Assembly: GCF_056712565.1 (NCBI RefSeq)
Contig: NZ_CM160072.1
Strand: one strand, 5' to 3'
Length of the DNA stretch: 64,000 nucleotides
Shown: positions 3,001-18,000 of the stretch, piece after piece
Layout: each line of letters starts with the position of its first letter
Position numbering within the stretch: the stretch's first letter is position 1
Program-made: the position numbers

Positions 3001-6000
3001 TCAGAAATCGAAGGTGACGGATGCACGCACTTCGCGGCCGCCGCCGATAAACGCACTTGGGGAACCGTTATCGCCATCGGTACCCGATGGGAAGATAGAA
3101 GCCCAGTAATGTTTATCAAACACGTTGTTTACCACCACGCGGAAAGTGGTTGGGACGTTGCTCACTTTCGTGGTGTAACGCGTTCCCAAATCCCATGTGG
3201 TATAGCTGCTGGCGTAAGAGGTGTTGGTATCGTTCGCCGCGCGTTTGCCCGTATAATGGACGTTAGCGCTGTAAACCCATTCCGGTATGGACGGCAAACT
3301 GTATTCCGCCAACAGATTGGCCTGCACTTTCGGCACGCCGACAACCTGTTTATTGCTGGTTGAGGCATTCGCCGTATCTTTCAGTTTCGGGTCGAGGAAG
3401 GTCACGCCGCTGTAAATATTCAGCCCCTGCCACACATTCCCGGCAGCGGTTAACTCAAGGCCGTTGTTAACCTGGTTACCCTGCTCTTTATACACGTTAT
3501 CCGTATCAAGATAGGCAAACGGACGTTCCAGTCGGAACAGCGCGGCGCCTAGATTCATCTCGCCGATGTCCGATTTTAGCCCCACTTCATACTGCTTGCT
3601 GCGATACGGGTTTAGCGTTTGACCGGCATTTTTTACGCTCTCATCCGTCGGTGCGGTACCGCCCTGCTCCAGCGAATCGGCATAGCTAACGTAGGCCATT
3701 GTGTTAGGGGTAATTTTATACATCAGCGCGGCGTTCGGACTTAAACCATTTTCATCAACCTGGTTCGTTTGATTACCGTGCTTATCGTAGTTTTTAGTCT
3801 GCAGCCAGCTCTGGCTGAGATAGAACATTGCCGACCACTGCGGCGTAAATGTCACCGTATCGCCGAGCGTAACGCTCTGCTGAGTATTTACGCTGGAGCG
3901 GTATCGCGGCCCGCCGGTGCGGATTTTGCCATCGCCCTGCTCATCTATCGCATCCGGGTGATACATATTTGTTGTACCCCAGCTATAGCTGGAACCTGTT
4001 CCTTTGGCACTATAAAGCGACCAGACATATCCCGTGGTAGAAAGTGACAGATCGTGGCCGATAGAGCCGGTATCAATATGACCATTCAGCCCGGCGGTGT
4101 TGCTCAGGACGCGAAAACGTCCGGCAGCGGTGGAATCCTTCATCGAACGAGAGATATCGCCCTGATTGTTGAGTATTTTACTGGAAACACTACGCATCGC
4201 GCGGTCAGCCTGCTGCCAGCCCACGCCAGCGTTCATGGACCAGTCGTCGTTAAAGTAGTGGATCAGGCGAGTGCTGATGGTATCGGTAGTGAGGTCGTTG
4301 CCCGCAGTGCTGAGCGCCAGATTTTTGTCCTTCGGATTCGGCGCAGACGGCAGTTTGACGTTCGGCCCATAGTTAAAGCTACCGACATAGCCTTTCTGGA
4401 TAAATTCGTAATGGCTGGCGTCGAGCTGTAGCTGAGTGCCCGGCTGAATATTCCAGTCGAGCGCAACGGAAACGAGTTTGCGACGCAGCGTGCTGTCATC
4501 CACATTGCCTTCCCCTTCCTGATCAAGCAGGTTCACGCGATAGCCAAACCGTTTGTTTTCATCAAAATGGCCACCCAGATCGGCATGGCCGGTAAACGCA
4601 CTGCGGCTTTGATAGCCCAGCGTCACTTTACGCAGCGTCTCTTCGGTTGGGCGCTTCGCCACGAAATTAAACTGCCCTGCTGGGCTCGCCGGGCCGTACA
4701 GCGCGCCGGTCAAACTGTTAAGCACATCCATGCGCTCAAGCATTTCCACCGGAAACGCGGTTGTTGAAACGATATTCAGCCCGTCCAGACGGCTGTTGGC
4801 CACCACGCTGCCCTGCATCCCCCGACTTTGCGGACGCCCGACATCCATTCCACCGCGCGCCTGCATTTGCGTACTGGGAGAGTATTTCAGCATCTCGCTG
4901 ACGCTTTGCGCCTGCTGATTTTCAATCATCTCTTTAGTAACAGTGGTGCTGGAATATGGTGTTTCGATCCAGGATTTCGTTCCCAGCGGGCCGACATCTA
5001 TATCGTTCGTTTTGAAACCGGCACCGGCGGCAGAATCGGTGGTGTCGGCGGCGGTGTTGCCCGTGACAATCATTTCATCTTCAGAAGTAGACGAGGCATG
5101 AGCATGAAGCGGTATGAAAGACGCTAATGCTGGCAAAAGCGCAGCGAAAGTTATTTGAGTTTTCATGAATCACTGATCGTTATGTAAATATTTATATTAC
5201 GATCGGTGCATAGGCAAAATTATGATCCAGATCACACGTGAATGTAAGTTATTTACAAATTACGCTAACCTTCTGTCTCCGCTCTTTGCAGCATAAAAGT
5301 ATGGCGGCGCGTTGTTGAAAGCAGGAGCGGCCGGGTTGTCAGAAAGCTGGTTTGGACGCAAGTAATATATAACAACTCTGATTACCGCATACTGTCAGGA
5401 CAGTATCTACTTGAGCGTCCGCCTTTGGCACAAAGCGGACTGTCAGATTAGATTCAGACCTGTACTCATTAGCTGATACAAATCAGCCACATATACCTGC
5501 ATTCAAAATAATTTCAGAAAGATATTATCTCCGTGAATCCCCCGCCACCTTTCCGGTGCACGGGGTTTTGTCTTTTTTCACTGGGAATACATGTATGAAT
5601 CCGTCTGATGCCATTGAGGCAATTGAAAAACCGCTCTCCTCCCTGCCTTACCCGATTTCCCGTCACATCCTGGAACATCTGCGCAAACTCACCCGTCACG
5701 AACCCGTGCCTGGCATTATGGGTAAAAGCGGGGCCGGTAAATCCTCACTCTGTAATGCACTGTTTCAGGGGGAGGTCACCCCGGTCAGTGCACTCATGAC
5801 AGTGCTTCCCGGACATGCCGCCATCCATCTGATGACACGCCTGCAGGACGAACTGCGCACGGAGTCTGTCCGCACTCAGACCCGTGAACAGTTTACCGGT
5901 GCGGTGGACCGGATATTTGACACGGCGGAGAGTGTCTGCATTGCCTCTGTTGCACGCACGGTTCTGCGCGCCGTCCGTGACTCGGTGGTCTCTGTTGCCC

Positions 6001-15000: not shown

Positions 15001-18000
15001 CCGGGATTCAGCGCCTGTACCCGCACTCAGTTAATAAACAGCATCGATATCCTCCGGGCTCGCAGGGCGACCGGCCTGATGACCCGCGACAATTACAGAA
15101 CGGTAAATAACATTACCCTGGGTAAGTATCCGGAGGCGAAATGATGACACTGGAAGCCGACAGCGTTAACGTACAGGCGCTGGATATGGGGCACATTGTC
15201 GTTGACATTGATGGTGTTAATATCACTGAACTGATTAATAAGGCCGCTGAAAACGGTTATTCACTCCGCGTGGTGGATGGCCGTGACTCTACCGAAACAC
15301 CGGCAACTTATGCCAGCCCTCACCAGTTGCTGTAAGACAATGCAGTGATACAGGGTATAGTGCCATTAACCACAGAAACAGCACTGTTGTCCTGTATTAA
15401 GCAGGCAAGAGAAGATGTCCTTACCCTGCGCCATCTGCAGCTTCTGCACCAGAACCGGTGAATCTCACTCAACAGGCTTCATTTCCCCTGACGCCAGCCT
15501 GAATACAGCTGGCGTTTTCATTTATAAACAGAAAGGAAAACCGATAATAATGGAATGGACGCCCCGACCATGAAGCAACGGTAGGATATTACTGATAAAC
15601 CTTCCAGTGGAGGTGCGTTATGGCCGTTTTAACGATTAGCATTGACCTGACAAAAAATGAATTCCAAATCCACGGTCTGGGTAGGAACAGAAAAATCTAA
15701 GCTCAGAAAACGGATTAAAGTAAGCGTCAACGGAGCACCGTATTGACGCTTATTTATTGGTGAGAACTACGTTCCATGGCAGGAGTTCGTCAACACGGTT
15801 GGAGGGCCATTCCGGCAGTATGCTCAGAATATGGCGCAGATACGCTTCCGGATCGATACCGTTCAGACGGCAGGTGCCTGCTTTTCCGGCAACAAGCAGG
15901 AATCTCAGCGCTGAAGCAGGAATTAGAGGTAAAAACGCCCTACCGGGCCATGAATCACCCGGTCATTGGAGTAGTAACCAAAGCAGATTTAGCCAGCATG
16001 GAACAAATATCTTTGGTGAAAAGTTGGTTACGGGAAGCTGGAGCGCACAACGTGTTAGTAACCAGTGCAGTTAATAACAATGGAGTTACAGAACTTTTTG
16101 CCTTGCTGCATACAGAAGAAGGCTGTTGTTAATTTCGATTGGTTCTCAGATGAGAATGATGACGGTGATACACAGATAAGAATCAATGAGCAATGAGGGT
16201 TGCCGGGCAACCCTCATTGAATAAAACGGGAATTACTTCGCTTCGCCGTTTTTCATTTCGCCCATAGCTTTCAGCTTTTTGGAGATATCGCGGCGTTCTT
16301 TGGAGAGCTCGGCATTTTTGATGATGTAATCGTCAACGCGATCTTCATAGTCACCTTTCATGCTGGCGATGATGCCCTGGATTGCTTCAACGCTCATCCC
16401 TGGCTTGATGTAATCGCTCAGGTTGTCCAGCAACAGGACGCGCTTCTGGTTGTCACGGATCTTTTTCTCAACGTCCTGAATTTCACGTTGCAGTTTGTTC
16501 TTACGACGGAACAGACGAACAAATTCCAGTACGTCCTGGAATGAAGGCTTGGTAGTTTCCATTTTTATACCCCTGATAATGTGAGAGTCGGATTCGTTTA
16601 AGCAACCGCTATTCGTTAGGGCCAACATTACTCATAGCTGCCGCAGATGACAATGCTTTTATCCCTTTTCACTATCATACCCTTTATCCTTGCTGAATCG
16701 AAGCAGCAGCAAGATGATTCTGAAGTTCAGGAATTATTTGCGCAAGGCCCGGCAAATCAGATTCGATAGCAACTCAAGCTGATGTGCCGTTTCCATGTTC
16801 AGCCACACATAACCATAGATTGGTGTTTCCACGACTTTCAGATCATGGTGGTTATCGAGCAACTGACGCAGCTCTTCCACAGCATCGTTCAATTTTTCCG
16901 TATTGGCAAAAACCGGCTGCGGATTACCTTCGTACAGCGCATGAACAAGGCTCAGCAGTATTTGCTGCATCATGTGCTGGGTATCACGAAGTTTTTGCGC
17001 GTTCAATAACACGAAATGGCTGGGGCGCGTGGCCCAGTATGCATTGATTTGCAACTCCAGCATACAAACCAGATTGCGATTAATGGTCTGGATACCTTCA
17101 TATATCGATTTGGGAATACGGGTTTCTTTGCTGGCGGGCGCAATCAGCCCACGCATTTTCACGGCATCGGTCAGCAGTTTTTGTAGATGGCTTTCCAGAC
17201 GTGGGCGTTCGAGTAAGTTCGGTGAGAATGCAGATTGATAGACCCGATTATACTCGGTCAGACTTTTCGCCAGTTGAATGCGCCAGTGGATGAACGCCCG
17301 TTGTGGCCAGATACCGGTAAACAACATTGCCAGTAAAGAGCCGAGGATCACATCGCCGCTTCGCCATAACGCCGTATCAATTTCACCTGTCGGGGAACCC
17401 ACAACAATTGCCAGCGTCACCCCAATCAATAATCCTTGATACGGTTTCTTGCCCAGCGCCAGCCAACCGCAAAGAAACATCGCCGCCGCGCACCAGACTA
17501 ACATCAGCGGTAACGAAATTAACTCCAGTTGCAGAGCGATAAGACCTAAAATCGAACCCAACACCGTACCGCCAATACGTTCGAAGGCACGAGGGACAAC
17601 GTTCCCCCAGAACGAGATTGGCCCCATAATCACCACCATGGTGACCAGCGGCCAGGTGCTTTCCGGGATAGTAAACAGGCGGATAATGAGAAAAGTGAGC
17701 AGGAATGCCAGCGCGACCCGAGTACCATGCACAATGCGGTAATGGCGGTATACCCGGATTTCAAACGGGCTTAATGACTTATCGGCACGCACGCAGAAAC
17801 TCCGTAATGAAGATTAAAAGCGCTCATAACACATCTGTCGGCCAGAAGGCGCGCCTCTGAGTTATCCGACGGACATACCGGGAACAGTGTAATTTCCCGG
17901 CAGGAGCGAAAAATTTGAAAGGCGCATCTTACTCTTTTCGCTTTCAAAAAAAGAGTGGTCTTCGCGTCAACACACCGCCCTGAGATGAATTAGTGATGTT

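Follow-up and report, generated by a model that had tools for sequence, protein, structure and literature searches.

Positions 5493-16232 of the 64,000-nucleotide stretch of contig NZ_CM160072.1 (assembly GCF_056712565.1) analysed here, referred to as the window, are best explained as the distal 'yee' module of an old, decayed genomic island of the P4-integrase type, located at the site that holds CP4-44 in Escherichia coli K-12 (cobU...tmaR). The variable segment of this module carries genes for a dynamin-like GTPase, a YjcZ-family protein and a patatin-like phospholipase (the triad), immediately preceded by a diverged but conserved copy of the Dam/OxyR-controlled regulatory region of agn43 (also called flu), the gene for antigen 43 (Ag43). 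Taken jointly, the explanation of the island as a decayed mosaic, of the operon variants as switch-driven and of the triad as a membrane-directed defence module is, in our assessment, on balance probable. The kind of island and its modular make-up have already been described, and the finding as phrased in the original prediction, that the flu cargo of a CP4-44-type island had been replaced by a dynamin-patatin operon and secreted-protein genes, therefore adds little. It is the fusion of switch and operon that appears to be undescribed. The features of the variable segment, all on the + strand, are as follows.

6033..6246, +: agn43-type regulatory region (alignment with the K-12 flu and O157 cah regulatory regions)
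6247..8631, +: dynamin-like GTPase, 794 amino acids (aa), an RdcA/CrfC paralogue (Pfam Dynamin_N, E 2e-18)
8628..9533, +: YjcZ/RdcB-family protein, 301 aa (Pfam YjcZ, E 2e-71); the start overlaps the dynamin stop codon
9530..10600, +: patatin-like phospholipase, 356 aa (Pfam Patatin, E 4e-25); overlaps the yjcZ-family gene
10617..10636, +: terminator-like hairpin after the patatin gene (consensus scan)
10932..11413, +: hypA, periplasmic protein with a signal peptide and a predicted Ivy fold (AlphaFold2 and Foldseek)
11429..11839, +: hypB, 136 aa, with a signal peptide (translation)

The dynamin, patatin and secreted-protein genes that had been predicted are thus real and intact, with a signal peptide on both small open reading frames (ORFs).

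The regulatory region ahead of the dynamin gene

Between yeeP and the first codon of the dynamin gene lie 204 bp that have no BLAST match in K-12 and that alignment identifies as a diverged homologue of the agn43/cah regulatory region. The promoter hexamers are in register, with a -35 element TTGCGT at 6117-6122 (TTGTCC in K-12), a 17-bp spacer and a -10 element TAGAAT at 6140-6145, and TAATAGAAT, which contains the -10 element, is invariant across the aligned dynamin-type, flu and cah regions. GATC sites at 6151, 6169 and 6182 have flanking bases that are conserved in the flu/cah alignment. The OxyR 37-mer consensus, placed at 6148-6184, spans all three GATCs and matches at 16 of its 20 specified positions (14 of 20 for K-12 agn43); when 2000 random 130-bp windows were drawn from this sequence, one scored as high. 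The pattern GATCGTTNNNANCGATCG has no other occurrence in the 64 kb, where 0.04 matches are expected by chance.

The switch region was found in 1985 of 5426 complete E. coli genomes (2205 places), almost always with at least 93 % identity. It is ~74 % identical to the cah switch with no intermediates, and constitutes a discrete lineage. Eight diverged copies, that of E. albertii among them, all have GATC II and III unchanged, and seven of the eight keep the full set of three sites. In NCTC9699 (locus L008, about 9110-9130), a 19-bp deletion removes GATC I and part of the OxyR match, and this switch may be a natural variant locked in one state. Versions of the operon from outside Escherichia are without the switch element.

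The agn43-yeeR-irmA operon has been shown experimentally to be one OxyR-repressed transcript, starting 228 bp upstream of agn43 (Moriel et al. 2016, PMC4807369). It shares with the window a homologous three-GATC/OxyR promoter region right after the GTPase gene, and a multi-gene operon followed at its end by genes for small secreted proteins. However, the window switch is only ~74 % identical, one GATC spacing is 1 bp shorter, the 5' untranslated region (UTR), at ~95 nt, is shorter than that of flu or cah, and the genes behind it are unrelated to yeeR and irmA. In K-12 (locus L002, 13307-13540), the annotated small RNA IsrC starts at the agn43 transcription start and ends at a terminator-like hairpin just ahead of the ribosome-binding site of flu; with these end points, IsrC looks like an attenuated flu 5' UTR. 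The IsrC terminator hairpin is absent from the dynamin-type switch.

The form without flu could have arisen by a recent, local deletion of Ag43/Cah from an O157-type island, and would then have no functional meaning. This would be compatible with the 90-96 % identity of the flanking GTPase and dynamin genes to those of the O157 island, and with the deletion that is also found in the window yeeP. It does not account for a regulatory region with only ~74 % identity to those of cah and flu and a shorter 5' UTR of its own, nor for the recovery of this discrete lineage from at least three chromosomal sites and from E. albertii, and the window has no counterpart of the 100 bp found after cah in O157. 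A simple recent flu deletion was rejected because the regulatory region is both diverged and conserved, and we regard this origin as very unlikely.

As a conserved copy of the switch precedes the operon, the operon is probably phase variable. We propose that it is probably transcribed from the agn43-type promoter under Dam/OxyR phase variation and that its genes would be co-transcribed. OxyR bound to the unmethylated GATC triplet would block transcription (OFF), and Dam methylation of the three GATCs would keep OxyR off (ON), such that the operon would be expressed in only a heritable fraction of cells. The Salmonella opvAB and gtr operons, which affect phage susceptibility, likewise have GATCs inside OxyR sites and were horizontally acquired, and in these systems the arrangement yields ON and OFF lineages (PMC3350482, PMC2909390). 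Their products modify the O-antigen, whereas those of the window operon are predicted cytoplasmic enzymes.

A homologous five-gene cluster was the most strongly up-regulated locus in one lysogen clone of E. coli MP1, in all media, and this 2026 transcriptome study attributed the up-regulation to lysogeny and put forward a defence induced by lysogeny (PMC12922286). The same picture would be expected, and these data would be explained, if the clone from which the lysogen arose had been in a heritable ON state; clone effects of this sort are a documented risk for Ag43 (PMC3764049). A literature search yielded no paper connecting the operon with OxyR, Dam or phase variation, and no methylome evidence for unmethylated GATCs at the locus, the ST131 methylome paper being without locus detail.

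The dynamin-YjcZ-patatin triad

The motifs of both enzymes are intact, namely G1 GTMKAGKS (residue 75), G3 DTPG (235) and G4 NKFD (298) in the GTPase, and the oxyanion motif GGGAVG (residue 13), nucleophile motif GASIG (40) and DGG (223) in the patatin. No transmembrane segments were predicted in any triad protein. Over their full lengths, the GTPase and the YjcZ-family protein share 34 % and 31 % identity, respectively, with RdcA/CrfC and RdcB of K-12, and the GTPase scores 551 bits against the NCBIfam CrfC model, for which the equivalog cut-off is 1146 bits. Judged by these comparisons, the two proteins are paralogues rather than orthologues of RdcA (YjdA/CrfC) and RdcB (YjcZ). In K-12, too, a dynamin-like GTPase gene is followed by an overlapping YjcZ-family gene (PMC6510439), but the window pair is island-borne and is joined by a third overlapping gene, that for the patatin; no patatin gene follows rdcA-rdcB.

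Patatin homologues with 48-63 % identity were examined in six genera, and all are preceded by dynamin and YjcZ genes, with the genes overlapping. The neighbours of these triads are as follows.

Vibrio vulnificus: BrxL and PglZ; a WYL regulator directly upstream
Pseudomonas: BrxR, SIR2, an integrase, and a YeeP-like GTPase with RadC and DUF932
Enterobacter: an integrase, a WYL regulator, Mrr and a PD-(D/E)XK protein
Erwinia: a WYL/helicase cluster, McrB and a type I restriction-modification (RM) system
Plesiomonas: an integrase-bearing element
Pectobacterium: the end of a yee-type island

Thus, in four of the six the triad adjoins BrxL/PglZ, BrxR with SIR2, Mrr, or McrB with a type I RM system and a helicase. 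The triad is kept across gamma-proteobacteria beside BREX, McrBC, Mrr and WYL genes, and PADLOC does not list it. We therefore regard it as a candidate for a new defence system, a role that its genomic context in other genera makes likely. A defence role for the triad was also suggested by the BMC Genomics authors. The three cytoplasmic proteins would most likely form a membrane-directed defence module, in which sensing or remodelling of the membrane would fall to the dynamin-like GTPase together with the YjcZ-family protein, with the patatin phospholipase as the effector.

In the Pseudomonas fluorescens locus (L090, 6668-21044), the triad lies in an integrase island with the YeeP-like GTPase, RadC and DUF932 genes, beside BrxR, SIR2 and an ADP-ribosylglycohydrolase. 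This content indicates that the triad and the yee-type backbone genes travel together well outside the Enterobacterales. The WYL-domain gene directly upstream of the triad is at 5682-6650 in V. vulnificus (L091/L092) and at 5744-6619 in Enterobacter asburiae (L096). This gene takes the place that the Dam/OxyR switch has in Escherichia, which suggests that regulation of the one operon has been solved in different ways.

The triad was not assigned to Eleos or to CBASS (cyclic oligonucleotide-based antiphage signalling system), as the PADLOC matches are weak and partial. For a CBASS of the CapV type, the CBASS_lipase model gave 18 bits against a cut-off of 200, and the operon has no cGAS/DncV-like cyclase. 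Eleos/LeoABC (Millman et al. 2022) resembles the triad in its dynamin-family GTPase, its defence-island neighbourhoods and the P-loop that would be needed for function. However, it has two consecutive dynamin-like proteins and neither YjcZ nor patatin, whereas the window has one Dynamin_N protein.

Two other functions were considered. One is a signalling or biofilm module, in which a GTPase pair like RdcA/RdcB would tune cyclic di-GMP or the envelope lipid state and be co-expressed with Ag43. The full-length paralogy with RdcA and RdcB, which activate DgcE (PMC6510439), and the link of the operon to the Ag43 switch, and often to Ag43 itself, are consistent with this. The lack of a patatin gene at K-12 rdcAB and a score below the CrfC equivalog cut-off are not, and in other genera the triad is found without Ag43, in integrase-bearing islands beside restriction, BREX and WYL genes; we consider a signalling role unlikely. 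The second, which we consider highly improbable, is a virulence or vesiculation device like LeoABC, which would promote the release of envelope or secreted proteins, the periplasmic products of the neighbouring hypA and hypB among them. Here the dynamin-like protein, the pathogenicity-island context, a weak LeoBC profile match and the adjacent secreted-protein genes, one with an Ivy fold, have to be set against a single dynamin gene where Leo/Eleos has two or three, and against the distribution of hypA and hypB. The operon versions of O157, E. albertii and genera other than Escherichia have neither gene, and relatives of both are present without the triad in the same interval of Salmonella diarizonae. 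From the latter it also follows that the 5.9-kb cargo is itself composite.

The RefSeq annotation of hypA starts at 10736 and gives a 225-aa product. However, the sequence contains an internal signal peptide (MKRLH), and the common homologues have 160-161 aa, which places the start probably at 10932, for a product of 160 aa. The AlphaFold2 model (pLDDT, the predicted local distance difference test score, of 83) has Ivy structures as all of its top eight Foldseek matches in the PDB (probability 1.00, TM-score up to 0.72), and an Ivy-like (inhibitor of vertebrate lysozyme) fold is therefore predicted. The Pfam Ivy match is sub-threshold (E 0.067, 13.8 bits against a cut-off of 21). The loop motif of Ivy is CKPHDC. 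The product of hypA shares with Ivy (PDB 1GPQ, 1XS0, 1UUZ and 4PS6) the signal peptide, the predicted fold and a Cys-x5-Cys loop, CKANTC, but is only ~20 % identical, and the His and Asp of the Ivy loop are not conserved. For hypB, no family match was found in Pfam, PADLOC or NCBIfam, and the AlphaFold2 model is unusable (pLDDT 50.5). Homologues of hypB with 31-32 % identity occupy the same interval in S. diarizonae and in a metagenome-assembled genome.

Content of the interval between the GTPase and DUF932 genes

In strain 1008S13, the order at the tmaR site is GTPase - agn43 - YeeR (838 aa) - IrmA - DUF905 - DUF932 - antirestriction - YeeS. When compared with the complete island at the same site, the window diverges at exactly 6033-11904, with homology resuming 55 bp before the DUF905 stop codon. 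Hence 5.87 kb in the window occupies the position of 6.87 kb (agn43, yeeR, irmA and most of DUF905) in the complete island. The variable segment of the original prediction (6247-11839, about 5.8 kb) does exist, though its limits by alignment are the wider ones given here. No protein similarity was found between YeeR (K-12 and full 838-aa forms), IrmA or DUF905 and the dynamin, YjcZ, patatin, hypA or hypB products, and the possibility that the two alternative modules are diverged copies was ruled out by this comparison; they are unrelated. K-12 is a deletion derivative. It aligns to relatives like 1008S13 in two pieces, with 3.35 kb gone and yeeR fused to yeeS, and it is only because of this deletion that it is without the DUF932 and antirestriction genes.

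The triad is not confined to islands without flu. In O157:H7 (serX island), enteropathogenic E. coli (EPEC) E2348/69 and strain 1070/13, the order is GTPase - Ag43/Cah - dynamin - YjcZ - patatin - (hypA - hypB) - DUF932. The K-12/O157 island homology ends at the autotransporter stop codon, no terminator-like site was found between cah and the dynamin gene of the O157-type island, and the homology of the window to the O157-type operon ends at 10685 (alignment with locus L003). As the triad lies 3' of Ag43/Cah in these strains, it is an alternative to yeeR-irmA-DUF905 and not to flu. The form without flu, with an intact GTPase gene, was found in L9 (a non-B2 strain, tmaR site), NCTC9699 (yghD), RM10410 (ileX tRNA) and E. 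albertii. The claim that the operon had replaced the flu/Ag43 cargo is therefore not upheld, given that the operon coexists with Ag43/Cah and that, where flu is missing, a homologue of its regulatory region is still present.

Decay at the same site was also observed. In 21AR0133 (locus L103, 11167-12933), an IS1 deletion took the GTPase gene, the triad and the start of hypA, and left part of hypA, hypB and a DUF932 pseudogene. LF82 keeps only yoeF and tmaR. The cargo at this one site thus differs between 1008S13, K-12, L9/CFT073, 21AR0133 and LF82, which excludes a universal ancestral state with the same cargo in most strains.

The interval was surveyed across E. coli with a query in which an inert spacer of 15.6 kb separated an intact GTPase gene from the DUF932 gene, and BLAST pieces up to 9.2 kb apart were joined. 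This matched 4907 records, from which 60 rows spread evenly down the ranking were taken, and 49 of these were joined intervals with the following content.

Ag43 + YeeR/hypothetical + IrmA: 19 of 49
Ag43/Cah + dynamin operon: 10 of 49
Dynamin operon alone: 8 of 49
Ag43 alone (with or without DUF905, some disrupted by insertion sequences): 11 of 49
Ag43 fragment only: 1 of 49

There are thus four recurrent combinations and one deletion form, and no other content among the 49. Under the explanation that we favour, all interval variants would begin with an agn43-type Dam/OxyR switch, giving switch-agn43-yeeR-irmA, switch-agn43/cah-dynamin-yjcZ-patatin, switch-agn43 alone and, in the window, switch-dynamin-yjcZ-patatin followed by the genes for two periplasmic proteins, one predicted to be Ivy-like.

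A cross-genus set of 80 loci encoding a DUF932 relative includes 44 Enterobacterales loci with the upstream GTPase gene. In these, the interval is more diverse than within E. coli: its length varies between 79 bp and 7.2 kb, and the ORFs in it form about 56 clusters, though some singletons are probably spurious. Those recovered across species are mainly small signal-peptide proteins (IrmA-, hypA- and hypB-like) and proteins of the YfjR-like helix-turn-helix, YagK/YfjJ and YfjI types, rather than defence systems. In Buttiauxella noackiae (L057) and Citrobacter freundii (L077), at 9035-15000, the GTPase gene is next to the DUF932 gene and an Ag43-family gene separates the latter from the antirestriction gene, and this is a second variable position in the island family.

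The interval is a genuine variable region of the island family, but its content is unlike that of a defence hot spot. The original prediction was of a cargo slot exchangeable as in such hot spots, with flu swapped for the dynamin-patatin operon. Differing cargo at one site in different strains, the range of lengths and ORF clusters in the 44 loci and the defence-island contexts of the triad elsewhere would all fit an open, freely exchangeable slot. However, the operon co-occurs with Ag43/Cah, the sampled E. coli intervals hold only the few recurrent combinations listed above, no cargo protein of the window has a system-level match in PADLOC, the cargo across species is mostly small signal-peptide proteins and regulators, and in some species Ag43 is downstream of DUF932 (L057, L077). 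The variability therefore stands, and the likeness to defence hot spots is only partly supported; as a full account, we give the open slot a low probability.

Several observations weigh against the explanation that we favour. The -35 element is weak (3 of 6 positions) and a generic sigma-70 scan called the overlapping TTAATA-18-TATTAT instead, so that the promoter is assigned purely by homology; the spacing from GATC-I to GATC-II is 18 bp, compared to 19 bp in flu and cah; and with a hairpin 3' of the patatin gene, hypA and hypB may be a separate unit. With respect to defence, PADLOC applied to the cargo and backbone proteins gave only a weak, partial LeoBC match (E 4e-6) and weak phospholipase-effector matches, with no LeoA, and RdcA/RdcB, the one YjcZ-family pair that has been studied, controls a diguanylate cyclase rather than phage defence (PMC6510439). 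Finally, the survey covers 60 sampled rows, with one best place per record, at least ~85 % identity and a flank gap of up to 9.2 kb, and a divergent lineage beside cadC, which lies outside it, has the order GTPase - YfjR-like regulator - hypothetical - DUF905 - DUF932.

The island, its flanks and its mosaic ancestry

Gene names for the yee end were taken from the RefSeq annotation of the identical stretch of CFT073, domains were from Pfam, and further profiles were from NCBIfam and PADLOC. The features of the backbone and the degenerate right end are as follows.

5493..6031, +: YeeP/YfjP-family GTPase pseudogene and upstream region (alignment to O157 locus L003; weak P-loop GTPase matches in Pfam)
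11905..12059, +: last ~55 bp of the DUF905 gene and DUF932 upstream region, where the backbone resumes (alignment with locus L007)
12060..12881, +: DUF932 gene (Pfam, E 8e-49)
12972..13457, +: antirestriction protein, ArdB/KlcA type (Pfam Antirestrict, E 9e-36)
13473..13949, +: YeeS, RadC-like JAB-domain protein (Pfam RadC, E 4e-44)
14018..14239, +: YeeT (DUF987; Pfam, E 2e-39)
14313-14681, +: CbeA antitoxin (RefSeq annotation)
14770-15144, +: CbtA toxin (RefSeq annotation)
15141..16132, no strand assigned: degenerate island end (RefSeq annotation), made up of the next four entries
15141-15335: YeeW/DUF5983, truncated, 64 aa (RefSeq annotation)
15369-15461: DUF957 fragment (RefSeq annotation)
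about 15720-15887, -: IS66-type transposase fragment (annotation; 159-bp match to the IS66 element in locus L004)
15950-16132: yoeF-type EutP/PduV fragment (RefSeq annotation)
16233..16562, -: tmaR (yeeX), the first core gene to the right of the island, as in K-12 (annotation and K-12 comparison)

All of the backbone genes that had been predicted (the yeeP pseudogene, DUF932, antirestriction, YeeS, YeeT, CbeA/CbtA, YeeW and yoeF remnants) were located where they had been placed, by Pfam or RefSeq annotation. The ordered backbone, YeeP-type GTPase...DUF932-antirestriction-RadC/YeeS-DUF987/YeeT-CbeA-CbtA-DUF5983/YeeW, is found in the same order in 80 Enterobacterales loci.

Relative to intact GTPase genes, the yeeP pseudogene has lost ~430 bp internally, leaving an ORF of 157 aa at 5556-6029. 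Window positions 5493-5790 and 5783-6031 correspond to 7705-8002 and 8433-8681 of the O157 locus L003, where the intact gene is at 7807-8679. The L007 alignment starts at position 16299 of that locus, within its DUF905 gene (16120-16353), and a terminator scan found a strong hairpin at 11981-12010, upstream of DUF932.

Complete islands end in DUF5983-DUF957-DUF4942-tRNA. There is no tRNA within the window, DUF4942 is absent from the island end and no integrase was found between 5167 and 16232. The island is thus a decayed remnant like K-12 CP4-44, without integrase, tRNA site or complete distal end. The remnant at 15720-15878 (159 bp, minus strand), which is 97 % identical to part of an IS66-family element and is also present in K-12, marks the spot where the distal end (the rest of DUF957, and DUF4942) was lost.

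The stretch 5167-16232 is 100 % identical to the chromosomes of CFT073, Nissle 1917 and several other extraintestinal pathogenic E. coli (ExPEC), and the source of the window is a phylogroup-B2 extraintestinal E. coli. In CFT073, the identical stretch is bordered by an iron-uptake block on one side and by tmaR-yeeA-sbmC-dacD-sbcB on the other. The right flank, tmaR-yeeA-sbmC, is as beside K-12 CP4-44 and 98 % identical to K-12 (blastn), and cobU was seen on the left side in one relative with an island at the same site. Only two stretches of the window align with K-12 CP4-44, namely the last 250 bp of yeeP (92 %) and 13497-20000, from codon ~8 of yeeS (98 %). With CP4-44, and with the 'flu module' and 'yee module' of tRNA-integrated islands (PMC11537424), the window shares the site, the right junction, yeeP, yeeS, yeeT, cbeA, cbtA, yeeW and yoeF remnants. 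It differs from CP4-44 in lacking agn43, yeeR and isrC, in keeping the DUF932 and antirestriction genes, and in having the dynamin operon and the iron-uptake block. Among the 5426 complete E. coli genomes, 1851 match the whole region, 1849 the cargo and 1529 the K-12-type region, each at a coverage of at least 80 %.

The island boundary had been predicted at 5167. However, homology to related islands starts at ~5500, and 5167 marks only the end of the following gene.

3001..5166, -: TonB-dependent siderophore-type receptor gene (NCBIfam TIGR01783, 288 bits, above cut-off)

Relative to L9, window positions 1-5500 represent a 6.2-kb insertion within the larger island, with CFT073 and L9 aligning on both sides. 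The inserted block, directly upstream of the GTPase gene, consists of a hypothetical gene, three ABC-transporter genes and the receptor gene, which is context and not island backbone. The receptor has no similarity (tblastn) in K-12 (yoeA), L9 or 1008S13. It may be the haem receptor Hma (c2482 of CFT073). Farther left, insertion sequence 21 (IS21) remnants and a gene for a 390-aa hypothetical protein are common to CFT073 and L9, and the island consequently reaches past the window. Four GATC sites fall within 60 bp, at 5175-5233, in the promoter region of this gene, the ATG of which is at 5166 on the minus strand. They include GATCGTTAT...ACGATCG, a sequence similar to the half-sites of the agn43 switch. 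This region could be a second methylation-sensitive promoter.

The window was compared with same-site (tmaR) and other islands by identity in a 200-bp sliding comparison, with the following results.

~13500 onward: 96-100 % to same-site (tmaR) islands
12305-12505: 78-80 % to same-site islands, 95 % to the O157 serX island
12905-13105: 74 % to same-site islands, 88-89 % to the O157 and NCTC9699 islands

Across DUF932 and the start of the antirestriction gene, identity to same-site islands is 63-80 %. Such patchwork identity within conserved backbone genes is as expected from homologous recombination or gene conversion among island copies, and genomes having any copy contain a median of 3 GTPase/DUF932 places, and up to 14. 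From these comparisons we infer ARRANGEMENTS exchange between sites by recombination between the multiple copies of the island that a genome can contain. The right part (about 13500-16232) would have been inherited vertically with the core genome, and the left part would be a mosaic, re-assorted by homologous recombination with sister islands (serX, ileX, yghD and others), for which the GTPase gene and the DUF932-YeeS genes would serve as the homology arms.

The operon is present in ~37 % of complete E. coli genomes and directly follows a conserved copy of the epigenetic switch that has been studied best in this species, and this predicts Dam/OxyR-dependent ON and OFF lineages. It also offers an alternative reading of the 2026 transcriptome study, with a clonal difference in phase state in place of an effect of lysogeny. 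Our most far-reaching proposal is tentative, and we think it more doubtful than the explanation of the window itself. It is that some third of E. coli strains, CFT073, Nissle 1917 and ST131 among them, may carry an uncharacterised anti-phage triad under an Ag43-type switch, bet-hedged in a heritable sub-population and co-switched with aggregation when Ag43 is present. If this is true, a potentially self-damaging, membrane-attacking form of immunity would be limited to a heritable sub-population of cells.

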